A DNA stretch of 64,000 bases, filler included, from Dirinaria sp. TL-2023a (taxonomy: Eukaryota), in assembly GCA_051941275.1 (NCBI GenBank). It is 4 parts of 4 records of this genome, joined end to end, with 100 filler letters (N's around TTAATTAATTAA, not from the genome) between each part and the next. Parts side by side here need not be neighbours in the genome. Positions count along the whole stretch, not along the records: positions 32,707 to 48,927 come from JAVEBF010000500.1; 3 more parts are not named here. One strand, written 5' to 3'. The notes below the pieces were generated by a model that saw nothing but the letters and a program-made list of their open reading frames with translations, was not told the DNA's origin and did not search any database. This document shows, piece after piece, positions 16,281 through 49,027 of this stretch (its first letter is position 1; every line of letters starts with the position of its first letter). A program made the position numbers and the translations under genes.

Positions 16281-16380
16281 NNNNNNNNNNNNNNNNNNNN
16301 NNNNNNNNNNNNNNNNNNNNNNNNTTAATTAATTAANNNNNNNNNNNNNNNNNNNNNNNNNNNNNNNNNNNNNNNNNNNN
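16281..16380. other. Artificial contig-joining spacer
   Basis: N44 + TTAATTAATTAA (stops in all six frames) + N44. Confidence 0.99.
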
Positions 16381-32606: not shown

Positions 32607-32706
32607 NNNNNNNNNNNNNNNNNNNNNNNNNNNNNNNNNNNNNNNNNNNNTTAATTAATTAANNNNNNNNNNNNNNNNNNNNNNNNNNNNNNNNNNNNNN
32701 NNNNNN
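32607..32706. other. Artificial contig-joining spacer
   Basis: N44-TTAATTAATTAA-N44. Confidence 0.99.
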
Positions 32707-33677
32707 ACAATCGTATACTAGCCTTGTCTTTACCACTCATAATGCTATGGACTGGTGTCTTTAGCAGCTTTTTTGATCCCTCTGCTCCTCGATAGTTAAT
32801 GAGCTTGGCATGAAGCATAGCGACGGTCAAGGGCTTTTCTCTAGAGTTGTGTAAAACTTCCGTTAGTCGACTAGTAAACGACCAGTCAGATATCCCGACT
32901 GTCTTAGCCTCTCGACAGCAGGCAGCTAAAACCTCGATCGTCCCATCAACAGACCGTCTATCAGCGGAGGCAGCGTAACAACAGTCTAAAAAGATGGCCA
33001 CATCGGGAACAGCGTACTCCAAGAGGTGCTGTATCGAGTACCAATCGATTGACGGTCCATCACCTCTGGGTCATCAGTAAGCATGCCGTCCGCTCTGCTT
33101 CGATACAAAACTACCGGAATTTGGGGATGGACAGCCAGTCAATACACATCAGACAGAGGGTCATAGCTGAAGCGTCTGGTAAAAGAGCATTGGATACTCA
33201 CTGCTCCCAGGTGCTCTGGTTCAAGTTGTTCAACGAACCATGACCGCCATAGTAGACCAACAATAATTCTGATCGCCTATCATGGTCATCCTGGAATTTG
33301 AAGATTTTCTTCTGTAGGCTTCTCTGTGAGTCCTTGGAAGGAATGAGATATGTTTCGGTAGCAAAACCATAGTCATTTGTAAAGACTCGCTCCAGTTGAT
33401 CGATCTCTCCTTGGACGCCATTGTTGACACCAGGTTTAAGAAATATATCATCTTCCCATCTTAAAAACAAAACAGAGACTTTCTCGTAGAGGTTACCGCT
33501 CCGTGCAAGTACTCCTGTCACAGCAATGTTTAAGTTGTTCACGAAGTCGTGCATTGAGACTAAGTGAGCTCTGTCGAGGAAAGAGTGAGGCATATTCCCG
33601 CTCATTGGTGGGAAAGCCTTAGGCTCTGTGTTTTCCGGAGGCTCGAGGGGCTCCTCCAAGTAGCTCATGGTATCCAT
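32707..33677 (-). CDS. Caspase-like (caspase-hemoglobinase fold) protein, 3' truncated
   Basis: YEKVSVLFLRWEDD, LLLVYYGGHG (His), IDWYSIQ..DVAIFLDCCYAA (Cys), EVLAAC and SFTSRL. Interrupted by intron(s) at about 33066-33200. Confidence 0.8.
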
Positions 33678-34565
33678 ATGGTCGGGGTTCTGTGATGAAT
33701 GGGTATATATATATAATATCAGGAGGCTTGATATCTGCCAGAAAAGAAAAGAACAAAGCAATAGGTGGTGGAGTGCTCAGCCTTGCAGTCATCCCAAATT
33801 GTCGTACCTTCGAATTTAGGGTTGGGAGCTTTCATCCGACCTACCTAGGGTTATCCCGCTCTCCCATGTTGTTGGCCATTCTTACTTTACCGTTCTCCTC
33901 AATATCTCTATCAATTATAAATGCAAACTCAGTAGAGTCTTATCCAAAGCGACAGGTCCTGGAATGACATCAAATACTATTGAATCTGTGGGAATACTTG
34001 AGAAGTCCAATGTAAGTTCAAATTTGAGAATCCGAAGTCGCCTTGCGTCCAAAAATGTTAAATAATATCCAGTGGACATCTATCAGTATCTCGTAAGATT
34101 TTTTTATTCAACCTACATATAAATTTTATTCTGCCAATATGAAGCTGGGTACTATGGGTCGGAAGTCTTACAAGCACCGTGAGAGGAAGGAAAAGAATAT
34201 GAATCTTCGTGAGGCCTAACCTGTGGCAAGATCCCTGGGAACACTACCTATCGGAGCTCAGTGCAAACAGGACGAAAAATCTTTTACTTCATGTAGCTGC
34301 ACTTAATTCGGGGCTCCAAGAGAAAATCTCTTCAGAGATAGCAGTATCCAATTGAAATGAGCTGAGAAGTAAGTTCATTGAAAATTATATGTCATAGCTC
34401 TTTTCTATTTGTGTGTGGAAATGTATATTTTATTTCTGCTTGTTTTCTTTCTCATTTAAATCTCAACTCTGCTATATGTGTGCTATCTGCACGCATTGTG
34501 GATCAAGCGGCGTGCCAAAAATGTGGATTTTTTTTCATCTCACACAAAGTTTCAAATCTACTAAT

Positions 34566-35669
34566 TCAAAAGACCCCATCTCTGTACTCTGAAGCACTTG
34601 TCGTGATTACAACATCACTCTTCACTTGAATCTCGCCTTGTGGCACCATTTCCTCCCGACTAATCTCGTGATCTGGGAGCGCTGGACCAGTGATAGATTT
34701 TTTCCGCTTTCGACTTTCCTTTCCTCCTTCAACGTGTACATCAAGGCCCCATTTCGAGCTCCCGGCAGAGACATCCTCCAGCTTCTTGAAGCCACTGGGA
34801 CCAAATTAGTCCAAATCGTCGTCCTGCTTGCCGCAGCGGGACCATACCATACGGCCGGAACTAGTAGAAGTGGTTTCTTGCGAGATTTCAGAATACATAG
34901 TTGGTCTACAATGCGCGCCCCGGATAATGAAGGATAGGACAGGGCGCAGGGAGGGCAGACATGCTGCAAAGACGCCTATGCAAGGCTCAGAGGCGGACCA
35001 GCTGCCTGAGTAGACGTAATTCCACGTTAGGTCAAAATTCGTGAGGCATGAGAGGACGATGATATGGACTATGGAGATGATACAGACGCTACGAAGTTGT
35101 TAACTATACGCAGATTGCACACATATTTATAGCCCTTCGGTTAACCGAGCGTGAAAAGCTTCAAGGTGAAAAAGGCGTACAAGCATGCACATGCGAAGAT
35201 GCCGGTCAAGACACCCTTTTGGGAGGCGGTCGTTCAAAGTCCCCCAAGCAGAGGAATTGGAAGTCCGATGATGAGAAAGTCAAGGACTACATTAATAGCG
35301 CCGGAAACAATGAGCCCCTCGTCACTGCCGGTGCAATGAAACTGGATTTCTTTATCCCAGAATCCGTGTAATGGCTGGCTGTTAAGGTCAATTGGTCACT
35401 TTTCATTATTTCTTAACATTTAGTCATTTACGTCGGGCTTACCATTGGAAAAGCGATGTAAGAATCGAGGCAGTCGCCACTCAAAGCAAGGACCTAAATA
35501 TGAGATTCACGCAAAGCTCTGCAAGAGCAACATGTCTCGACAGGAATTGCAGAATGACAAAGATGGTGGGCAAAATGATCAGAGTAATATTGACTGAGAT
35601 GATGCGAGGTCCTTTATCTGCTTGAGGATCGATCTCTGAAGGGATGGGACGCACGCCAACGGTCGACAT
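34566..35669 (-). pseudogene. Decayed Pth11-like (fungal rhodopsin domain) receptor gene
   Basis: Fragments DKGPRIISVNITLIILPTIFVILQFLSR, INVVLDFLIIGLPIPLLGGL*TTASQK and DLTWNYVYSGSWSASEPCIGVFAACLPSLRP. In-frame stops at 35234-35236 and 34806-34808; the middle TM region is missing or decayed. Confidence 0.8.
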
Positions 35670-37908
35670 AGCTCTGCCGTGCTAGTACCGGGCTTCAGAT
35701 CTTCACCTCCACCTTCGCTTGTGGAACAGCTTGTTGTCGCGGTGTCAGTTCATGAAGATACATGAACGGAACTTGAAGAGAGAGGCAAAGCCGCAGGTCC
35801 AGGTAACAAGGCTTGCAAAGGAGGTAGAGAAATGGGCCTTGGCCAATCGCCACAAATCTTGGTGTGAGAGTCTCGAGGTTTAATGCGAAAGGTGGATCAG
35901 TTACTGTGCCTCCCAGCGGGAACAAAATCTTTGTTTAGCTACGACGCCTACTACGAGTAACCAGTAAAGGCAAGTGATTTGCACTAAAAAGCGATCATTA
36001 CATAGAGCTAATAGAGGTGCTTGGTAGAGCGATAGTGGGTGTGCAAGGCCAGAACGAGTGAGCAGTGGCCAGCTTCTATGCACAGGAGCCTCGAAGGCAT
36101 CGGCGAGAAAATCTTCCGAAAGAAAGCAGGCTGAGAGACCGTCTACGAACCGTTTCCACAAGGAGATCATGTTGCGACTAGCAGCTTTGTAGTAGTAAAA
36201 GTAGCAACTGGGGATGCACAAGCGAGAGAGACGTTCCCGCTTCTTGCAATGGTGCACATTGTGACAACAGTCTTTCCGGCGAGGATTGCTTTTCATACGA
36301 TACCGGGACATTTCATCTATTTCAGTCAGGTACATCATCAGTGGCCACGGAATATTTGATGTAACATGGTAGATTAGGGAGGGTAGCCTCGACTTAACCT
36401 GCAGATCCGCGCTAACCCGTTAACGGGCACTGCAACGGCCCAGTATGCCATTGGCCAAATCTAGATACACGCAATCCACGAAGCGTCCACACTCTTTGTC
36501 GGCATCGTAACGACTTGATCCGCCTCGACACTTATTTCCATGCGTGCAGCCACGAAAGGAGTCAGCCCGTCATGGCGGTTGAGTGAAAAAATGGGAAAAG
36601 TTTGTACGTGCCATTACCACTGCTCTGTCAATCATCGTACGCTAAGATAACATCAGTGTGGTAGTACGAGAAGGCGAAAAAGGATGACCAGCGGCAAGGC
36701 CAGACTGTGGCGCACCTGGACTAAGGTACTTCGCCACCGGTGAAACTCAGTACTAATACCGTATGTCGCCATCTTTTCTGTGTTGCTACTGGTCAAAGAA
36801 CCATGCCCGCACCACCGATGCTGCAGGGTCATGGCGCCATGAGCTGCAATTGCCTAGAAGCAAGAACCGGAAGACCTTAGATCTTTCGATCCATCACGGC
36901 GGGCACAGGTCACAGTTCTTTGGCTCCTCTGCTTTCCAAGTTGTCCTACAAGGCGGCACAGTCTGAGAGAGCCCAATGAGTACGTCGATCGCCAGCAATA
37001 AGTTATGATCAAACAGCTTAGAGGCCATGGTAGCGAGCTTGTTATTTTTCGTATGCTCCACTTGGCCGTATGTACGATAAGTCACGTCTGTAAATAGTCA
37101 ATTTTCCGTCCTGCTAGTTCCTTTAACGCCGGACTACTTGTATCCAAACCTATCCGAAATGCTTCTGGGGTTCAATTTGAGTTTGATACATAATCACAAA
37201 AAGTTGCGAAGCTGGAGTTATTGGAGACCTTCTTGGACCTCTTGCGTAGTTATTCCAAGCAGTGCCCTCAGAATTTCCGACAAATATCGCAACTCTGTCA
37301 TGTCGCAAGGCTACTTAATTCACATCGAAGGAAAATCATTGAGATCAGATCGACTGCTTGTGTCGCGGGCCTGCTTACACAGGGAGTACTCACCAAGGGG
37401 GTTCACTGTAATGGTGAAATCCAAAATCAATCACTAGCTAGTCGAACAGAGTCGTTATCGAACATAAGCGTAGTAGCAACCAACAGAACTGGTCACCCAT
37501 CACAGCTTCCGTTGTCCATAGTTTGCATTCTGCTAGTCGATCGATGTATGACATAAGGGAGATCAGAGATGACAGTCGAGGTGCCCAATCATATCTCGTG
37601 CCAGCAAACAGGCAAATCCTTACTGGCGCAATGTTCCCGGAAAATCGCCTTACTAGCTCTATTAGGGAGTCGATTTGGAAACCAAGCATCAGCTGATAAG
37701 CTATCAATGAGGGGAGGTTGAGCCTCATGCCGCTACAGCTTACGCAGCTGGTCCTCGTATTGTTTTGACACTGGCTTTTAGCAATGATTCGGGCTTGCAG
37801 CTGTTCCTTTTTCGACGTTTTCGCTCGAAAGAGCTCACGCCCAATCTTCTAAAAGCCGTAGGAAATTTGTATCTCGGTAAAGGCCAGAAGCGTCCGCGTG
37901 TCTTTACC

Positions 37909-39260
37909 ATGGAGCAATCATGGCCTCCAAGTTGGAGCAAAGACTGGCATGCACTACTTGCTGCCGCCGCCGCCACTGTCGTGGTTAATATGCTCACCAC
38001 TTTACTTCGCTTCACTGCGCGCAAACGCGAAACGACTCGAACCGAGAGGAGGGAAGGCCTATACTTCGACGACTGGTTTATCCTTTTTGCCGCAGTATGA
38101 TGACGTATGTTCGAATAGTATTACTTACTCATATTGCTCATAGGTGACTGCCGCCATAATATCCTGGATAGATTTCGGCTGTGGGGTGAAATGACAAGGA
38201 GAAACAATGATCATTCCGCTGACTTGTAGCAGTGGCGATACACCTGACATCCACTCCAAGACCCAAGGTCCCCCAGAACTTCACATGCTATTCCTTTTTC
38301 GCCACGCACCTATGCTGGATACTCACTCTCGGGGTTGCAGAGTTGTCATGCTTAGCACTGTACTCTCGACATTTTGTCTCGCGTGATTTTGGAGAATGCA
38401 CAAAAACCAAACGCTGGATACTTGGCTTGAGAGTCATTGTCATAATGTGGACAATCGGAGCGGTATTTCAAGGACCTCTTCCGCTGATGCTCTCCTGCTG
38501 ACGGTATGAAGCTACTATGGACTGTATTTGGCGAAGGAATGCCGCCCAGCCGATATTGTACCACTGGTCCAAACGAACGGTACCAAGACAGGATCATAGC
38601 CACGTCGATAGTCCACTTCGTGATCAGCCTCGCCATTTTGATTACACCATTTGCCCGCGTTGCATTGTTGCCAAACAAACGGTCTCACAAGTGCATTCTT
38701 CTCTTGCTCTATACCCTGGGCTGGGTGTAAGTCAATCATACTCGCCACTTCCAATCACGATCATGGACTGATCTTCATTATCCAGTACCCTAGTATTCTC
38801 GGCCTTCCGATTCTATTACCTCCTGGAACGGCTGCATAAGCCTGCTCCTGAGACCCTGCATTACTTCGTGAAGGCAGTAATGTGGAGTCTCATCGAGATC
38901 AACACGTCTATTACCCTTCTGAACATGCCGGCACTCATGCCAATAGTGGATTGGTGTCTCGATATTTGGGTCTGGTTTCGTGCTGAAAAGCAAGAACTCG
39001 CGGCTGGAGCTACACATGGACGTGATGCAATCAATTCGATGCTGTTAAAGCCAACAAGGCCTCGCATGAACCTCTCAGATTCTGAGGCTGATCGCGAGAA
39101 TCAGGCGCAACGGCGCTCAGGGTCGGCAACCGAGGCTGGTAGACGATCGTTCGGCTTGGAAAGAACGTCCTCTGGCAGTCTTCATGTGCAGGAAATCCGT
39201 CGACAGTACCGAGTAATTAATGAATGGCCTCGAAGGGAAGGGGACGCATTGAATGCCTAG
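37909..39260 (+). CDS. Pth11-like (rhodopsin domain) integral membrane protein, divergent
   Basis: LLRFTARK..GLYFDDWFILFA, LSCLALYSRHF, ILITPFARV..P and WSLIEINTSITLLNMPALMP. Several introns. Confidence 0.75.
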
Positions 39261-39917
39261 ATTCTGGCGGCCTGCCGTTCACGAGATGATTGAATTCTTT
39301 CTGGGAGTAAAATTTGGAAAGCGCGATTAAGGAGGTTCAAGAGGGGCTAGGAAAGGACTGGTTCCATGTAGAGCATGGAAGACAATGTCGCTAATTTTCT
39401 AGGAGCTACTCACGCCGCATTTCACTATTTCTGATTGGATCCGCTAATCTGTGCGTTCAAATTGGCTTTGGAGGGCGCCCTGTACTCCTTTTTTGACTGA
39501 GCTTGGATGAGGGAGTGTAACCGGTCGGTGGTAGCAAATCGGTATGAGGTCAGGAATATCGGCTTTCATCTCATTAAAGTCTTCAACTCACAAGATAGGC
39601 CATGCTTAATCAAATATCAGGTTTTACCGTGATTCTCCGATCTAGTGTATTCATAATCATTCTCCCATTTTCTGTGGCAAATACTGGGACTAGCTCCCCA
39701 AACCGAAAAATAAAACTTCCCTCGCCTAAAATTGCCTTTTCCCGACCTCGGGCAAAATTACCCGAGCATTGACATCAGCGACCCCACACGGCGATCTCTT
39801 TTCACAATTGAAGAAGTTTACTAAGTACTGAGGTACATAGCCAGATGGCGCATCACCTTCCTTTCCACTCCCATACCAAGAACCTCTCCCCCATTCTCTC
39901 CCATCCCTCATAACGCC

Positions 39918-40412
39918 ATGACCAACACCCAAAACCCCACCCCACTACGCATCGCCCTCGGCAGCGACGATGCGGGGTTCACCTATAAATCGACCCTCAA
40001 AAGCGATCTCGAATCGCACCCACTCGTCAGCAGCGTCCTCGACGTCGGGGTCTCCTCCGCCTCTGACAAAACCGCCTACCCGCACTCCGCGGTGCGCGCG
40101 TGCAAACTCGTTCTCAGCGGAGAAGCGGACCGCGCGCTCTTGGTCTGCGGTACAGGGATGGGGGTGGCGATCTCGGCGAACAAAGTCCCTGGGATTAGGG
40201 CCGTGACGGCGCATGATAGTTTCAGTGTGGAGCGGGCGATCATGAGTAATGATGCGCAGGTGCTGTGCATGGGCGAACGGGTGGTTGGGCTTGAAGTCGC
40301 GAGGCGGCTGGTGAAAGAGTGGTTGGGTTATCGGTTTGATCCCGAGAGCGCGAGCGCGGAGAAGGTGAAGGCGATTTCGGAGTATGAGGAGAAGCTTAGG
40401 AATGGGGGTTAG
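39918..40412 (+). CDS. rpiB: RpiB/LacAB-family sugar-phosphate isomerase (D-erythrulose-4-phosphate isomerase-like)
   Basis: [30 protein letters not shown] and [26 protein letters not shown]. Intronless and GC-rich. Confidence 0.93.
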
Positions 40413-40909
40413 TGGTGGAGGTTTAGGGAATGCATGCTTGGGGGGCAGGCTTGAGGGTGTGTGGGAAAGAGGAGGTGATAAGTCACTTGATTTGAACAGG
40501 ATTGACTAGGGGATTTATCTGATTTCATTGTACATAAATCATACCACTCTCGCAGGTTTTTCTTAAGCATGCATGCTATCGGCGTTCTCCTTGCTATTCA
40601 GTGGTCTGCCTCCCACCATCTAACATGCGTGGGCCATGTCAACCTCTCTGGCATTCTCGAAGTTCTTCAATGATCTGAGCTTCCAGCCTCTTTCGCCATT
40701 CTGCCGTCGGCCTCGTACTCTTCAGGACGGCGCATGGATTTAATCTGACGTCCGAAGACGTTGTGCCCAGATCTTCTCGAAACTGGGTCAGGGGTCCCAA
40801 TGTGGATTTGGATAAGAGCGACGCCTCACAAGCGAGTCTCTGGGTCGCTCGACAGGGAAAAGTGGGTCTTGCATTGAGACCAACGAGCAATATCTCGCCC
40901 ATCCACTGC

Positions 40910-41698
40910 TCACTCTTTCCCAACCTCCTCGACCACGCTCTTCATCGCCTCAACATCATGCGCGAATCTGCCCAGAAATAATCCATCTAGATCCCCCTTC
41001 AACTTTTCCCAAGTCCCCGGGCCCGCACTACCTCCGTACAGCATCTTTACCTGCCCATTCCTTCCCGTCTTTTCAATTATTGTTCTCAGCTGCCCTACCA
41101 CAGCACAGACATGATCCGCACTCGCTGGCTCCTGCGCCCCAATTGCCCACACGGGCTCATATGCAAAGATGACATTCGCATCGCCTGGAATGGCCTCAAG
41201 CACCGCTTTTACTTGCGGTGCGCACTCCCTCATCGCCAATCCGACCCCTTCTGACACGATTTTGCTTTGATGCTTCTCGCCGATGCATGTCAGCGGCACC
41301 ATTGCATTCCGCACGACAGCCTGCGCTTTCCGCGCTATCGTTACATCATCCTCGTAGAACGCCTCCCCGCGTCTCTCGGCGTGCCCGAGTACCACTATCG
41401 AGCATCCGATCTGCTTCAGCATCAGCGGGCTTACGCAGCCGGTGTACGGGCCAAGATCTTCCCAATGGCAGTCTTGTGCGCCGAGCGATATGTTGGGTGC
41501 GGGTTGGAGTATCGAGCTGGCGGGGAGGAGAGTTGGGAAGGAAGGGACGACGAAGATTCCGAGCGAGGACGGTGACGACGAGGAGTAGTGTTGAGCGAGG
41601 GACATGACGTAGGAAGCGCTAGCGTGGTAGTCGAAGTACATTTTTAGGGAGACGCCCACAAGGCGGCTTGGAAGGGGAGTGGACGTGCTGACAGCCAT
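40910..41698 (-). CDS. Atypical triosephosphate-isomerase-family protein (L-erythrulose-1-phosphate isomerase-like)
   Basis: GVSLKMYF, GAQD, GPYTG, LGHAERR, AYEPVWAIG, LYGGSAGPG and DGLFLGRF. Intronless. Confidence 0.9.
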   Translation of the reverse strand: MAVSTSTPLPSRLVGVSLKMYFDYHASASYVMSLAQHYSSSSPSSLGIFVVPSFPTLLPASSILQPAPNISLGAQDCHWEDLGPYTGCVSPLMLKQIGCSIVVLGHAERRGEAFYEDDVTIARKAQAVVRNAMVPLTCIGEKHQSKIVSEGVGLAMRECAPQVKAVLEAIPGDANVIFAYEPVWAIGAQEPASADHVCAVVGQLRTIIEKTGRNGQVKMLYGGSAGPGTWEKLKGDLDGLFLGRFAHDVEAMKSVVEEVGKE

Positions 41699-42001
41699 GT
41701 CTGGAGATTGAAAGGGAGGCTTGCTCGAAGCTCAGTAAGTGAAGAATGTCAACAGAGTACTTTACTAGTGTTTTGGAGGTGCCTCGGTTCATCTCGCGCT
41801 CGCGGGGTCGGTCCGGGTGCCCCGCGTTCTATCTATCGACCCCTCCACGTACCCCTCCATCATCAAACCTCAACAATTCGGAACCTGAAACATTATTTAA
41901 ACGGTTCCTTCAAATCTAGCCTTCCTGTAACCTACATACTTCTCAAATATCTCACATCATATCTAAGAATATTTGCTTGATCGAATTTGAAAGTTGCAAC
42001 C

Positions 42002-42463
42002 ATGGTCACTCAGTCCCCCAAGTTCAAGCAGGCCACTACCGACAGCAAGAAGCTGAAGGCCAAACCTACCGACGATGAGCTGCTCGAGGTTGCTCTATTC
42101 CGACCGATGCCGACCGTTCAATATCTCCTTAGCTGACATGTTGTGTAGCTATACGCACTCTACAAAGTCGGTACCCAAGAGACCAAGTTTGAGGACGCTC
42201 CTAAGCCCGGTGCTTTCGACTTCAAGGTTTGTTCCCATGATCCAACAACATGCTCTATCTCCCAGGACTATTTCTCTTTCTCATCTGCCACCACGCTCTG
42301 TATAATATTTATTGTTGGCTAACGCTACTACTCCTCGCAGGGCAAGTACAAGTACAACGCCTGGAAGAAGCTCGTCGATGCAAAAACCACCCCAGAAGAT
42401 GCGCAGACGAAGTATGTAGAGCTGGTCGACAAGCTGAAGGGAACTTATGGGATGAACGCATAA
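42002..42463 (+). CDS. ACB1: Acyl-CoA-binding protein
   Basis: Three exons give MVTQSPKFKQA..LKAKPTDDELLE|LYALYKVGTQ..PKPGAFDFK|GKYKYNAWKKL..AQTKYVELVDKLK. Introns 42089-42148 and 42227-42340. Confidence 0.93.
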
Positions 42464-43574
42464 GGATACAGCGTGGAATGGGTACAGAGAAGCATGTTTT
42501 ATGTTCATGGAGCGGAGGGTGGTTCTCTTACTGTGAATGTTTTCGCATGGTATACGGATTCCTGCAAAAACCCAGTATGCCAATCATCTTTTCCATTACC
42601 CTGATGACTGTTGTCCTTGGGTAGCAGTACTTCCACAGAGAAATCCCGAAGGTTCTATAATTGCTGAAATCTGGTTCATTAGAGTTCACCTCAGCTATTG
42701 GTAAATAGATTTTTATCTCCTCTACTTTGCTATGAGTTTCTTTCTTTCCTTCCAGAACAAGTAGTGCCAATGACTCGAGCCAGTAGTATTCGACAGTGGG
42801 CACTTTTGCCACGTCGACTACCATCATTGTGTCAAATTAATCGAGAGAGGGATAAAGTCAGCAAAGAGTGAGGACAGATAACGATTGCAGGATAGTGAGG
42901 AAGAATAGTGTAGCATGTTCACAGATAGTACATTAACATATAAAAGCTACTCATGCCTCTACTCATGCCTTCGTAGGTGTTTGGTACATGAGCAATTTAT
43001 TAGCACGCAGTATGTATATTTGCAGATGATATCCTATATTCATGCATACAATAAACAGAATTATGATAGACAGTAAGGTATGCTGGCAGTTTAATCAAGA
43101 GTCCCGTCAATTGCAGACGTTCAACCCTGACCTAGCCCTGCGTAAGGACTGAACTACCTTACATAAGAGGATCAGATGTTACAAAATCGCACTACAATCT
43201 CCATTGGAGATGGCTATCTTCCCAGTCCCTCATGCTCTACTCTGAGATTCTTGTTTCCTTCTTTGAGAGATCTTTGAGAGAAGATCAGTCAAACGATTGA
43301 TAAGCTCTTGTACTTGACAAGCGTGGATTTTCTTTTGGACTATCTTTCTGAGCTTCCAAGTCATCCTGAGGATAAGGTCAGTAAAGAGAGTACAGAAACT
43401 GCTATCTACAAGGTACCCTTCGTAGTGAGGTAATAAGTTCCGTACTACGATAAGTGAGTGATATTTCGAAAGTATTCATCTTCGGTTCATTTCAAATGGC
43501 ACAAATTAATGAGGTCAGGCCAACCGCAATCGTCTCCTTTCCGTCTCGTGGCAACTAGCCAATTTTCAAACAAC

Positions 43575-44746
43575 ATGACACCTTCCGCCAGAAAGCGCAA
43601 AGCGGCCGATCTTCCTAGGTACTCCGTGCCCCAGATTCTGAATCCGAGAATCCATGGACTAACGTTGAGTCTCCGTCAGCAATGACAGCAAGCCGAAGCA
43701 GCGTAGGCGGGAAACCACCACACTCGATCCTGAAGGCGACATAGTTTTGGAAGTTTCGAGCTCACAGGACGAGGAGAAAATTTCATTACTAGTGTCCTCC
43801 AAGGTCCTCTCCCTAGCATCGCCGGTCTTTGCCAGAATGCTCGGCCCCAATTTCGAAGAGGGTTCTCGCAGAGCTTCAGCATCTGCGCCCGCCAGTATAC
43901 GCCTACCGGAGGACAACGCTGCAGCAATGGAGATATTCTGCCGGGCAATTCACTATCAGATCAATGATATCTCGGAACCGGTCACGCCTACTCAGCTAGA
44001 AAACTTAGCAGTTCTGTGTGACAAGTATGATTGCGTGAGAGCGCTGAAGCCGTGGACTACTCTATGGTTTACAGCGGCACTTGAAGACTATCCTTCCAAG
44101 GATAGCTGTTTGAAGCTTCTTGTAGCAGCATGTGCCCTTGACGATCCACATGCTTTCTCAATGGTATCGTGGGAAATCGTCGTTACTCGTCAAGGCCCAA
44201 TTCGCGGCCTTGAGAAGCTAACTGATCATGATCTTATGCCTAAGACGGTTTTGGGTATGTCTGGCACGTACATTTGTTTCTACGGCTGACACTACGTAAG
44301 CCGAGATGGACCATCGCAGATCTGAGATATACCTGGACATATCAGATGCGATCGAGAAGCCTATCGAGGGGTTGTTGAATCTATCAGGCGAGGTTTCTTG
44401 CCCGAATATTGCTCGCTTCATTACGCAATACCTCAACGAGCTTCGACGGCGATGCATTTGGCCGCTGGCAGTGATGATGATGCAACATTTCAGTGCTTCA
44501 GACATTTGTTCCCACCTGCAGTCCATAAGACCCCCAAAATTGGTATGCTGTGGAGCCAAGGAATGTCGACAGTGCAGAAAAACTGAAATAGTCAACGCCG
44601 CCGCGAACTTGATGGAAAGCTTACGAGCCGCGGGGACAAAGATCAAGGGTGATGACAAAGATAACAGGGTGGGTCTCTGCTTGGACTGCGTGAAATCAGG
44701 CAGACAATCTCGCTCTGCAGGATCTTGCCGGACAAAGCATATCTAA
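43575..44746 (+). CDS. BTB/POZ domain protein (copy 1)
   Basis: LDPEGDIVL, LVSSKVLSLASPVFARML, LPEDN, LAVLCDKYDC and C-terminal GLCLDCVK..CRTKH. Two introns. Confidence 0.88.
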
Positions 44747-45584
44747 AGCGCTCTAACAACTTTTGTCGTTCGATTAGCACTCAAAAGTGGTTATGGTCCG
44801 AGAATATTGAGTCCAGGATTTCAGACCATACTAGCTTTTGGGAGCCCGCAACATCTTAATGGCGTTCAAAGCTGCCACGCACATGGTTGCGGGCTTGGCA
44901 GCGTCAACAGGATACCGTATGAAAGCCAATATGAAGCTGCTGGTCTGCTTGATGAAGGGTATGACTTTTGATAAATTAGCCACCGAGATATCAGTATTTT
45001 TAAGGAATGCTATCATGATCTTCCGACGACAATTGATGGATTCTTAACAAGTTCATTAAAGCATGTATTGCTCCGATATATATCCCCTATGACGTGAAAT
45101 ATGGTGCTGTCGCTCTTAAGTCTCAACCTTGCTCGTGTCCGCTTCGGACAAACACTTGCTTTCGCAGATTTAAAAAGGCCCTTTGTAGTAGAAGCCATGG
45201 CGTAGCCTGTATCTTTGAGTACAGGAATTGAGGAGAAGTTGAGTCGCTAGAACGTTCCTGAAAATGTGAAGTATACCTTCACTGTATTCACATGCTTAAC
45301 AGAAATTGTTTGGCGCCGCTCTAGACTTCGCGGCAGATTCATTTCAAGGCAGCGACTGTCTCGTCTCATTACGACAAAACAAATTATTTCCTTTGCATCT
45401 AGCTGCAGGCTTCCGGATCTGCTCTTTCTTTGATGCTTATAAGCCGCGTCTAGCCGATGGTAGCATGCTTCATTTCAAAGCTGAAACTCAGCCAAGGCAA
45501 ACATACACCGACTTATAGGTGAAGTCCAACCTCCATCTCTGCCCCTCACTGTCAGAGGAAGGCTCTGCATCTCGCGCCACTACT

Positions 45585-46604
45585 ATGGCAGACAAATCTA
45601 ACATAATCGAAATCGACCCAGACGGTGATGTTCAGCTGCAACTCTCATTAGGAGAAGACGATAATAGGGAGTTCTTAGTCTTAAAAGTAGCGTCCAAGAC
45701 ACTCACTCTAGCGTCGCCGGTCTTCAACAAGATGCTCAACTCCAGCTTCAAAGAAGGCATAGCGAAGACAACCAAGGGCAGTGTTGCCATCCCCTTGCCC
45801 GAAGACGACTCAGAAGCGATGACCATAATATGTCGAGCTCTCCATAATATGAACGATCTTGTTCCCGAACAACTCTCTACGACTTTGCTCGAAGAGATTG
45901 CGGTCCTCTGCAACAAATACGATTGTGCGCGAGCGCTCATGGCTCACGGCAACGTCTGGATCCGGAATGGTCTTGATTCTAGTCCTAGTTCATTGGACCT
46001 GGATAAACTCCTGTTTGCCGCCTGCGTCCTTGATATTCCGGCGGCATTTGCAAAGGTTGGATGGGAGTTTGTTCTAGCCCGCGGAGAGCGTATTATCGAC
46101 CTTCAAGTGGGACTACCTGCACTATTTCCCCACCAGATCCTTAGTAAGTGTGGTGGAAAGCTTATTGTGGAACGTTGCTAAAAAAATACAGGGGAACTAG
46201 ACAATATGAAAGATGAGCTTCATCAGAAGCTTATAAATGCACTTGAAACTCCACTAAAGGCTTTTATGACGCCTGGACAGTGTCCAGCCAGTCAGCGCGT
46301 AGTCTTGCAATATCTCCAAAATTTGCACCGATCATCATTATGGCCTATAGGACCATTGTCCCGGAAAGCTAGCCTTTCCGTGATTCTCACACGGATAGAA
46401 GGACTCGCAGAGCCCAATATCCAGACATGCGAAATTGGAAGTTGGTGTATGGTGTGTCAACACAACGATACGCCAAAATTCAAGGAGGGAATCCTCAAGA
46501 CACGACAGGAGATTCTGAATGCGAGGCCAAGACTCTGTCTGGACTGCCTCAAAAGCGAGAAGCAGACACTCAGGGAAGGCAAATGTCGCATCAAGCATGA
46601 GTGA
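45585..46604 (+). CDS. BTB/POZ domain protein (copy 2)
   Basis: IDPDGDVQL, VASKTLTLASPVFNKML, LPEDD, IAVLCNKYDC and C-terminal LCLDCLK..CRIKH. One intron near 46144-46191. Confidence 0.88.
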
Positions 46605-47165
46605 ACGGGTCCAGGCAAAAGACCAGCAGGGGTTTGGGAGAGATCAAAGAGATTGTCAGCATCCTCACGTCTCTCGATTTGCGTGCTGATATGTCTACGC
46701 GAGCGCCCATTTCCCGATCCTGGACAGTTGGGAGGTTGAGGGTAGATAAGAATTCGCGTGTTGCTCGGATGGGGAAGTTGCTGTTATGTACGATATCAAG
46801 GTAGTCTAAGTGGGAAAGTTAGCATCTGCAAACTGTGCACACTCGCTGCAGATTTCCGTTAGAAGGCGAACTCGCATTATGCTGATTCGGTGCCAACAAT
46901 TCATCATCCATCTTCAAAGTCCGGGCACAACACAGTAAATGATTTCGGCAAAAGCTGTGACCCCGAGTCAAGTAGCAACTGAGCGTGTCTATTGTGTTTA
47001 GACGCATTACGTAAGCATCCGCCATTGACGGGGCAACGCGAAGACAACAGCTGAATTTCAACTTCCCTCAATTCGCATCTCCAATCGCAGACTCCACAAC
47101 CACTCTCACAACTCCACCCTCAGAACCTCCAGTAAACCTTTCTCTATCAAACTCTACCTCCAAAA

Positions 47166-48024
47166 ATGGTGATCCACTCCTCTTCCTATCCACGTCCCTC
47201 TCCCTCTCCCTCTGCACGCCCCTCCTCTAAACGCGCTCCCACTTTCAGAATTCCCCTCGTATACTAACACACCATCTCTACACCGCAGGCATCAACAAAC
47301 TACAAAGAAGCCTTCTCGCTCTTCGACAAACGCGGCAACGGCCGCGTCGCGCTCCAATCCCTCGGCGACCTCCTGCGCGCCTGCGGACAGAACCCCACGT
47401 TGGCTGAGATCTCAGAACTGGAGGCCAGTGTCGGCGGAGACTGTACGGTTTCCCTTTTCCCCTTTCACTTCCACCGTTCCTTTTCACGCGGATTGCGAAA
47501 ACCCCAGTCTCTATTTCTCTGGAAGTTGCGCACGGCTAATGCATGGCGACCGTACAGTCGATTTCGAGTCCTTCTCCAAAATCCTCAATCGGCCAGGCGG
47601 GTTCCGCGAACCGGGAGAGCCGGAAGAGTACTGTCGCGGCTTCCAGGTGTTTGACAAAGATATGACGGGGTTTATCGGCGTGGGCCAGCTGAGATACAGT
47701 AATGTCCCTCCCTTAACCCCCTCTCAAAGAATTCCAAACACTCGAGAACCGGAAACCGAGCGTCCGAAGACGCATCTACAACGAAAATTTAAGGTATATA
47801 GGGAAGATATGGCTAACGTTTGTTGGCGTGAGCGATAGTCCTAACGAATCTGGGCGAGAAAATGAGCGACGAGGAAGTCGATGAGTTGTTGAAGATCGCG
47901 GATACGAGTAATGGAGAGGTTAATTACACTGGTACGTTCGTATCAAAGCATTTTGGCCCAATGTGGTAGATGGCGAAAGCTGATGGATTTTGCAGAGCTT
48001 GTGCGGACAATCCTAGCGAATTGA
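47166..48024 (+). CDS. Myosin light chain (Cdc4/Mlc1-type EF-hand protein)
   Basis: ATG-only first exon, then ASTNYKEAFSLFDKRGNG..LRACGQNPTLAEI|..FQVFDKDMTGFIGVGQLRY|ILTNLGEKMSDEEVDELL..NYT|ELVRTILAN*. Confidence 0.93.
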
Positions 48025-48927
48025 GCAGGCCCTTCCTGATAATACTGAAGAGAACCACCTACGTGTAGACAGTGAACTGGGCTTTGGGCCGAGCGGAGTT
48101 GGAGCGTTGGCTATGGCATAGGCGTACCTAGGTACAATAGGAAGAAAGCCACGTGGGTTTTGACGCTGGGTGTATTACGATGTAGGTAGAAACATGCATA
48201 TATGGGCTACTACTGGGTTCCGTAACCAGATCCTGCATTCATCACGACCTTGATAACCTTTGTACCTGCTGTTCTAACTCCGACGACGCTCTACACCTGG
48301 CTCAAACCCCAGCGGGCGTGTTTGAAATGCGTAGGAGGCACGCTCCAAGCTTCCAATACCAACCCACCGGCATGAATCCGTCGTGAGATTGGACATATCC
48401 CATCGGCGGACCTTCAAAACCGCTCTCAGCTCTTAGAGCACCTGACTTCTTCACGGACTGTGGGCGTACATAATGGGTATACATATCTCAGCCCATGCTC
48501 AGGGGGGCTACGCCCATAAGATCGAGGATAATTTGCCCTCAATCTGCTTCTGCTAGAAGCCGTAGCTCGTGTTCAAGAGTCGTTCCGCTGTCGGAGAGCA
48601 TCGATCCAGGGCCATCCCACCCCTCGAACAGAAGAGCTGAAAAGATCCCGTTGAAAAGTCCGTGTCGAAGGGCGTATGAATCTCTCCATATTCCAAAAAC
48701 CTTTGTATTGGCTTTTGTATTCCATATTCCATCACGCACCGCTACCACCCTCTTCACTCGCCTCCAGGCCCCTCAATCTCCATCAGACCTCCCTCGGGGA
48801 AGTACATCACCCTGCCCCGAACGCGCTTCCCATGCACCACCACCTCCGCCGCGCCTTCAATCTCATACCCGACCACGAGCGCGCACCGCGCACAACTCCA
48901 CACCCGCCTCCTCTCCCACCCGTCCCT

Positions 48928-49027
48928 NNNNNNNNNNNNNNNNNNNNNNNNNNNNNNNNNNNNNNNNNNNNTTAATTAATTAANNNNNNNNNNNNNNNNN
49001 NNNNNNNNNNNNNNNNNNNNNNNNNNN
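48928..49027. other. Artificial contig-joining spacer
   Basis: N44-TTAATTAATTAA-N44. Confidence 0.99.

Follow-up and report, generated by a model that had tools for sequence, protein, structure and literature searches.

A convergent, intronless pair of RpiB-family and TPI-family genes in a likely lichen-forming ascomycete, predicted to encode the last two isomerases of four-carbon salvage

Analysis of the window, the whole stretch of 64,000 nucleotides considered here, identified a pair of adjacent isomerase genes whose products very probably convert L-erythrulose-1-phosphate to D-erythrulose-4-phosphate and then to erythrose-4-phosphate. The likely role of this pair is erythritol-type four-carbon salvage, as predicted from sequence comparison. 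The RpiB-family and TPI-family open reading frames (ORFs) are both intronless and are arranged tail to tail, with a gap of 497 nt between them:

39918-40412 (+): RpiB-family isomerase of the DerI type, 164 aa, PF02502; predicted D-erythrulose-4-phosphate isomerase
40413-40909 (no strand): spacer of 497 nt with both 3′ ends, entered from either gene by RNA contigs of a relative
40910-41698 (-): TPI-family isomerase of the LerI type, SLKMYF subfamily, 262 aa, PF00121; predicted L-erythrulose-1-phosphate isomerase

Locus, transcripts and neighbouring genes

The assembly comprises 27.7 Mb in 3105 contigs, and the pair is located on the contig C500 (window positions 32707-48927). Since the window consists of four contigs joined by N-padded linkers (16281-16380, 32607-32706 and 48928-49027), arguments from gene neighbourhood end at 32707 and 48927. 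The RpiB-family ORF matches PF02502 with an E value of 1e-43 and the TPI-family ORF matches PF00121 with an E value of 2e-51. RNA contigs from one sample of a related lichen (one study; approximately 90-95% alike; the contigs carry no expression level) showed no joint within either ORF, and the contig covering the RpiB-family ORF spans 39894-40445 without a joint. The acyl-CoA-binding protein gene alongside showed two GT..AG joints in the RNA contigs. Some bins between the genes have no RNA contig cover in the same sample. These data support both genes being real and intronless, and probably transcribed in a relative; the coordinates and the RNA contigs agree with the two convergent, intronless ORFs and the 497 nt gap described in the initial annotation of this DNA.

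The genes surrounding the pair on C500 encode rhodopsin-domain, acyl-CoA-binding, EF-hand, caspase-like and unassigned proteins. A fungal rhodopsin-domain gene, split over several frames, adjoins the pair on the left, and two intron-rich rhodopsin-domain (Pth11-like) genes with partial matches to Pfam PF20684 are found at about 34800-35400 (-) and 37900-39260 (+). A gene at 32707-33776 (-), which runs up to the contig end, has a weak caspase-domain match that is under the cut-off (PF00656, E 5e-4). On the other side, the acyl-CoA-binding protein gene (42002-42463, +, two introns) is divergent from the TPI-like gene with approximately 300 nt between the starts, and a promoter shared by these two genes is possible. 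Two similar two-exon genes in tandem (43669-44746 and 45519-46604, both +) are BTB-domain-like by eye, and their first exons have no Pfam match at E 0.01. The GC content of the isomerase pair is 57-60%, raised relative to the 46-49% of the neighbouring bins, a contrast given no weight here. The C500 ORFs of at least 90 aa, nine of which were scanned against Pfam, include no recognisable kinase or dehydrogenase, consistent with the earlier statement that these partners are not adjacent to the pair.

Active-site residues, family placement and housekeeping paralogues

The motifs DDAG and [10 protein letters not shown] are present in the RpiB-family ORF as quoted in the initial annotation. Alignment places residues D17, D18, C77, T79, R106, S110, N111, R121, S146 and K149 opposite D9, H10, C66, T68, L95, H99, N100, R110, H134 and R137 of E. 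coli RpiB, respectively. The catalytic Cys is retained (C77, corresponding to E. coli C66); H10, H99, H134 and R137 of the E. coli enzyme are all missing, with the ring-opening His and the phosphate-binding residues replaced in an S/R/S/K pattern (R106, S110, S146 and K149). The pattern D-x-C-T-R-S-N-R-F-S-K was seen in all 28 actinobacterial rows and in 19 of the 20 fungal rows of the alignment, the exception having K for R. In Rhizobium 3841, the RpiB encoded at the erythritol locus, a protein that passes the NCBIfam DerI model, shares all but the last residue of this pattern. None of the top 119 RpiB matches has the canonical DHAG or HNxAN motif. The best PDB matches are 3QD5 and 3SDW (E 1e-68), and 85 of 126 residues are identical to M. 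smegmatis DerI1 (counted by hand over the visible start of derI1 in the PMC10733421 supplement).

Scoring against NCBIfam models showed that the RpiB-family protein passes TIGR02133 'ribose-5-phosphate isomerase', an actinobacterial RPI model (195.7, over the cut-off of 168.2), and fails both TIGR01120 for rpiB (117.3, under 138.65) and the rhizobial DerI model NF051858 (152.6, under 240). The RpiB of an Arthrobacter operon behaves like the window protein with TIGR02133 and the DerI model, also failing NF051858 (143.5), and the TIGR02133 and DerI labels therefore cannot separate the functions. DHAG, the ring-opening His and a score above the TIGR01120 cut-off, as expected of a canonical RpiB, are all lacking from the window protein, which is the only PF02502 match found in the assembly. 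Its closest GTDB loci, the best 80 of at least 546 confirmed RpiB loci, all belong to Actinomycetota with 64-74% identity, and within a flank of up to 6 kb these 80 loci have a DAK gene in 77 cases and a TPI-family gene in 35. By alignment, the predicted RpiB-family protein carries the active-site signature of the D-erythrulose-4-phosphate isomerases (DerI).

The motifs SLKMYF, YGGSAGPG and LFLGR reported earlier for the TPI-family protein, and its catalytic Lys/His/Glu positions, were all seen in the ORF, together with GHAERR; K19, H106 and E181 align with K11, H95 and E167 of the E. coli enzyme. S17 replaces E. coli N9 in strand 1 and R244 replaces G234 in loop 8. As the same Ser-for-Asn and Arg-for-Gly changes are present in the aligned Rhizobium TpiB, we infer that these two changes may define the LerI type. 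The best PDB match is 3S6D (E 6e-69; presumably from Coccidioides), followed by 11EF, labelled L-erythrulose-1-phosphate isomerase (E 7e-38), and all ordinary TPIs rank below 11EF with E values of 4e-30 or weaker. The glycolytic motifs GN(W/F)K, YGGSV and LVGG are missing, and the score for TIGR00419 (tim) is 85.6, under the cut-off of 130.6. The protein also fails NF000722 with a score of 180.7 (cut-off 293), for which Rhizobium TpiB scores 436.

Rather than grouping with glycolytic eukaryotic TPIs, an outcome that the initial annotation had named as evidence against its reading, the TPI-family protein is split from seven canonical TPIs, the genome's own included, at 100/99 in an IQ-TREE phylogeny of 45 rows. 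In the same tree it falls into a 100/100 clade with bacterial proteins bearing SLKMYF, GHAERR, YGGSAG and LFLGRF, and a FastTree phylogeny of 169 rows, restricted to representatives of 235-320 aa, also sets it apart from the canonical TPIs. The Arthrobacter operon has the order alcohol dehydrogenase, ABC transporter, DAK, RpiB, TPI, and its TPI has the exact motifs of the window protein. This context and the shared residue changes indicate that the TPI-like protein would function like LerI, from a position outside the subfamily of the characterised enzymes.

Nor is the window protein the only TPI in the genome, the other contrary outcome named earlier: a separate canonical TPI with six introns and the motifs GNFK, YGGSV and LVGG is located on C629 and is 27% identical to the TPI-like protein. 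RpiA is present on C33. These two genes fill the housekeeping jobs, and the window genes are therefore not the housekeeping enzymes. The DerI-type residues, the tree placement on the LerI side, and the presence of canonical TPI and RpiA elsewhere are in line with the prediction of tetrulose-phosphate isomerases in the initial annotation.

Proposed reactions and alternative readings

The pair is proposed to complete a four-carbon salvage route with its final two reactions. In the first, a shift of the carbonyl from C2 to C3 via a Lys/His/Glu enediolate mechanism, the TPI-family enzyme would convert L-erythrulose-1-phosphate to D-erythrulose-4-phosphate, and the RpiB-family enzyme would then turn this product into erythrose-4-phosphate, returning the carbon to central metabolism. 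Erythrose-4-phosphate is open-chain, with no furanose ring possible, which fits the loss of the ring-opening His (Ser110). The likeliest input would be erythritol, either the fungus's own osmolyte or taken up, which would be oxidised to L-erythrulose and then phosphorylated by unlinked enzymes, possibly including the single housekeeping DAK.

RpiB-TPI fusions, apparently bacterial, occur in both domain orders (P0429, P0440, P0442, P0449, P0473, P0474 and P0477), and are further evidence that RpiB and TPI act in sequence. RpiB homologues with altered site residues were also seen on Streptomyces plasmids (L016:7992-13754 and L182:3007-6474) beside DegT aminotransferase and radical SAM genes, suggesting that the family has been recruited to a biosynthetic or modification operon. 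With two such homologues in unrelated operons, the RpiB family is open to re-use, and this counts against the assignment.

Queries with Dak1, Dak2 and the actinobacterial operon kinase found one DAK locus (C107) and no LerK-type kinase in this fragmented assembly. For both main exons of the DAK gene, the eukaryote-type glycerone kinase model gives the highest score, and the first of them shares 30% identity with the Arthrobacter operon kinase, a member of PRK14479. This DAK may accept erythrulose as well; alternatively, a second kinase may be absent from the assembly because of its fragmentation, or the substrate may have another source. The catabolic module proposed in the initial annotation is partly supported: the isomerase pair and a DAK exist, but as this DAK is of the housekeeping type, a complete module is only putative.

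It is unlikely, though conceivable, that the same chemistry is instead supplied from L-threitol, free tetroses, or apionate or ribonate breakdown, in a lichen perhaps including a side route from algal ribitol. A Pantoea operon with a TPI of the same subfamily encodes DAK, TPI, a TIM-barrel protein and a KARI-like PGDH_C protein, which we take to be ApnO, with RpiB nearby, and it resembles the ApnO-OiaC-LerK-EryH-EryI apionate route. Searching the assembly for PF16896 gave no match, with the control profiles silent as well. The standard ribitol route passes through ribulose-5-phosphate, which counts against ribitol as the source. A supply other than erythritol is favoured by the failure to find a dedicated kinase in the assembly and by a described conversion of ribonate to D-erythrulose-4-phosphate (PMC13753588), whereas fungal genetics in Yarrowia, in the accessible part of that study, point to erythritol (PMC5992420). 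The labels tpiB and rpiB in Aspergillus papers would make the pair spare isozymes of glycolytic TPI and ribose-5-phosphate isomerase, or isozymes used only under certain conditions, a reading that is highly improbable. The catalytic Lys/His/Glu and Cys are retained, TIGR02133 is passed, and the available portions of those papers list the two genes under glycolysis and the pentose pathway; however, canonical TPI and RpiA are present, TIGR00419 and TIGR01120 are both failed, and the ring-opening His and phosphate-binding residues are gone, DHAG and HNxAN being absent throughout the 119 top RpiB matches. In addition, ribose-5-phosphate gave a fungal orthologue neither a melting shift nor clear crystal density, according to the accessible text of PMC3212906.

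The pair could also salvage L-erythrulose-1-phosphate made from DHAP and formaldehyde in an aldol reaction, as a natural counterpart of the synthetic EuMP shunt, although the probability of this is very small. Such a source would explain why a LerK-type kinase is not needed, in keeping with none having been found in the assembly. Formaldehyde is freed by dimethylglycine oxidase. In A. nidulans given choline, tpiB, AN5907, the aldolase AN2334 and dimethylglycine oxidase are all up (PMC4830055), but the choline response is broad rather than specific, only one class II aldolase locus was found in the assembly, and E. coli FbaA gave no EuMP growth, as stated in a supplement legend of PMC10733421. 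A broader version, in which the pair outlived a dedicated kinase and is fed either by L-erythrulose-1-phosphate from DHAP and formaldehyde or by tetrulose phosphates from algal polyols, is very unlikely; if true, a natural eukaryotic erythrulose-monophosphate shunt would lie behind the labels tpiB and rpiB.

Distribution, origin and relation to known systems

The top named matches of the TPI-like protein come from lichen-forming fungi, among them Physcia, Lasallia, Xylographa, Letharia and Loxospora (58-65%, with other relatives at up to 86%), and those of the RpiB-family protein are from lichen fungi and Dothideomycetes (72-81%), plus one record filed under cork oak. The source organism is, as far as protein matches can tell, likely a lichen-forming ascomycete. 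Homologues are found across Lecanoromycetes, Dothideomycetes, Sordariomycetes, Pezizomycetes, yeasts and Basidiomycota, the TPI-like ones extending to yeasts and basidiomycetes. A 99/98 clade of TPI-like proteins unites lichens with Ophiostoma, a member of the Xylariaceae, Geopyxis, Vezdaea, Malassezia and Ustilago, and the proteins of Lipomyces, Kockiozyma, Limtongia and Sugiyamaella belong to the same subfamily with weak placement.

In other fungi the RpiB and TPI genes frequently lie next to each other. They have adjacent locus tags in Loxospora (MMC20_001782/3) and Kuettlingeria (Q9207_003961/2), and of 77 longer proteins that contain RpiB, nine named fungal models continue from RpiB into TPI within one prediction (Lambiella, Psora, Umbilicaria, Cercophora, Podospora, Parachaetomium, Chaetomidium, Ophiocordyceps and Staphylotrichum). 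These joined models are genes in tandem, fused or merged by the gene caller, whereas the genes in the window are convergent. In a metagenome scan whose listed matches were largely taken up by ordinary TPIs, one of the 80 loci (L102) has a fungal-type gene; RpiB and DAK are absent from the 6.7 kb of L102, and linkage of RpiB and TPI is thus not universal.

The widespread, generically labelled homologues in filamentous fungi, probably including the A. nidulans pair named rpiB/tpiB, are in line with the initial annotation. Its lichen-polyol proposal fared less evenly: the organism does look lichen-forming, but the link to algal polyols is unsupported, as many non-lichen fungi carry both genes. 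A lichen-specific adaptation is ruled out by the same wide distribution, the genes being widespread and often neighbours in lichen and non-lichen fungi alike. Bacterial contamination is ruled out by the presence of spliced fungal genes on the contig and by top named matches that are fungal gene models.

An ancient transfer from bacteria is the likely origin of the pair, as the sequence matches and trees suggest and as the initial annotation had considered possible; the best 80 of at least 546 GTDB loci are actinobacterial, and an old transfer fits the position of both genes within bacterial sequences, the 70% identity between RpiB and Actinomycetota, the lack of introns in the window and the kept linkage. 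The genes would have been acquired early in fungal history and have remained neighbours ever since in many fungi. A recent transfer is ruled out by homologues spanning Lecanoromycetes to yeasts and Basidiomycota. A named bacterial donor was not sustained: in the RpiB tree a node with support of 100 unites fungi and Actinomycetota, but on a long branch and in a sample picked by similarity, and in the 45-row TPI tree all 17 named fungi form one clade with support of only 68/30, six of 15 rows labelled bacterial having no taxon name. For RpiB, the AU test allows a single clade of fungi (p 0.55) once four long-branch rows are removed. The Ogataea RpiB (P0458) lies among actinobacterial rows in a quick tree, which may reflect a second transfer, but a single fungal clade is not rejected. 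A DAK-RpiB model recorded for the fungus gnat Bradysia odoriphaga (P0441) groups with Microbacterium and is probably bacterial DNA in that assembly. No treatment of the transfer of this pair into fungi was found in the accessible parts of the literature, that is, outside subscription papers.

With the pathway known in bacteria and Yarrowia, the pair itself is no surprise, and is another instance of a probable four-carbon salvage pair of a kind common in fungi. The 'glycolytic tpiB' and 'pentose-pathway rpiB' of Aspergillus are probably four-carbon salvage enzymes as well, which would alter the reading of expression data and metabolic models. According to the available text of a lichen-genome preprint, fungal erythritol catabolism is incompletely understood and algal erythritol is barely assimilated by lichen fungi (10.64898/2026.07.28.741190). 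Many lichen genomes carry the two isomerases, and one of these genomes apparently lacks a LerK-type kinase; this provides named genes with which to test that view, a testable handle rather than a discovery.

Among the systems already described, the Coccidioides RpiB structures 3QD5, 3SDW and 3SGW and the putative TPI 3S6D are the best PDB matches for the window proteins. Asp17, Cys76, Ser109, Ser145 and Lys148 of the Coccidioides enzyme correspond to D18, C77, S110, S146 and K149, and the authors, in the part of the article available, suspected a shorter substrate for this orthologue with the same divergent site and noted a separate RpiA (PMC3212906). In A. nidulans, rpiB (AN5907) and tpiB (AN5908) have adjacent tags and comprise one RpiB and a second TPI, a likeness drawn from published labels; in the accessible text both are listed as AtfA-controlled and treated as pentose-pathway and glycolytic genes.

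M. smegmatis DerI1, of the tetritol pathway LerK-LerI-DerI1, shares the DDAG, TAYPH and ERxxxSN motifs with the window RpiB in its visible portion, and M. smegmatis LerI has Ser for Asn in strand 1, as in the TPI-like protein (accessible part of the PMC10733421 supplement). The motifs SWKMNK and GHSERR of M. smegmatis LerI and Rhizobium TpiB are SLKMYF and GHAERR in the TPI-like protein, and the SLKMYF/YGGSAGPG motifs mark a predicted subfamily that is sister to LerI/TpiB. Unlike the M. smegmatis genes, the window pair is without an operon and without a LerK-type kinase. In the Rhizobium erythritol locus, of the EryH/EryI type, TPI and RpiB lie side by side after eryABCD-like genes; RpiB shares the DerI-type site residues with the window protein and TpiB falls on the non-canonical side of the TPI tree. 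However, TpiB is only 36% identical to the TPI-like protein, the window RpiB scores below the cut-off of the rhizobial DerI model, and the Rhizobium route needs EryA, EryB and EryC.

Such a pair is already published in Yarrowia, as the accessible parts of two studies state (PMC5992420, PMC9835291), which the initial annotation overlooked. The Yarrowia erythritol utilisation cluster holds an RpiB, YALI0F01628g (EYI1/EYL1), and a TPI, YALI0F01584g (EYI2/EYL2), which share 48% and 37% identity with EryI and EryH of Brucella, respectively; both genes are induced by erythritol, and deletion of the RpiB gene delays growth on erythritol by approximately 40 h (PMC5992420, available text). The route given there is erythritol to erythrulose, L-erythrulose-1-phosphate, D-erythrulose-4-phosphate and erythrose-4-phosphate (excerpt of PMC9835291, citing Niang 2020), and similar proteins were noted in other fungi (PMC10935855, in the part available). 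The Yarrowia cluster includes the kinase EYK1, the dehydrogenase EYD1 and the regulator EUF1, whereas none of these was recognised on C500 and the DAK is on C107. The window resembles Yarrowia in placing fungal genes of the RpiB and TPI families at one locus and in the reactions proposed for them. The window genes may be orthologous to the Yarrowia pair, as suggested by family membership, by similar identities to the bacterial enzymes, and by proteins of Lipomyces and Sugiyamaella that fall into the subfamily of the TPI-like protein.
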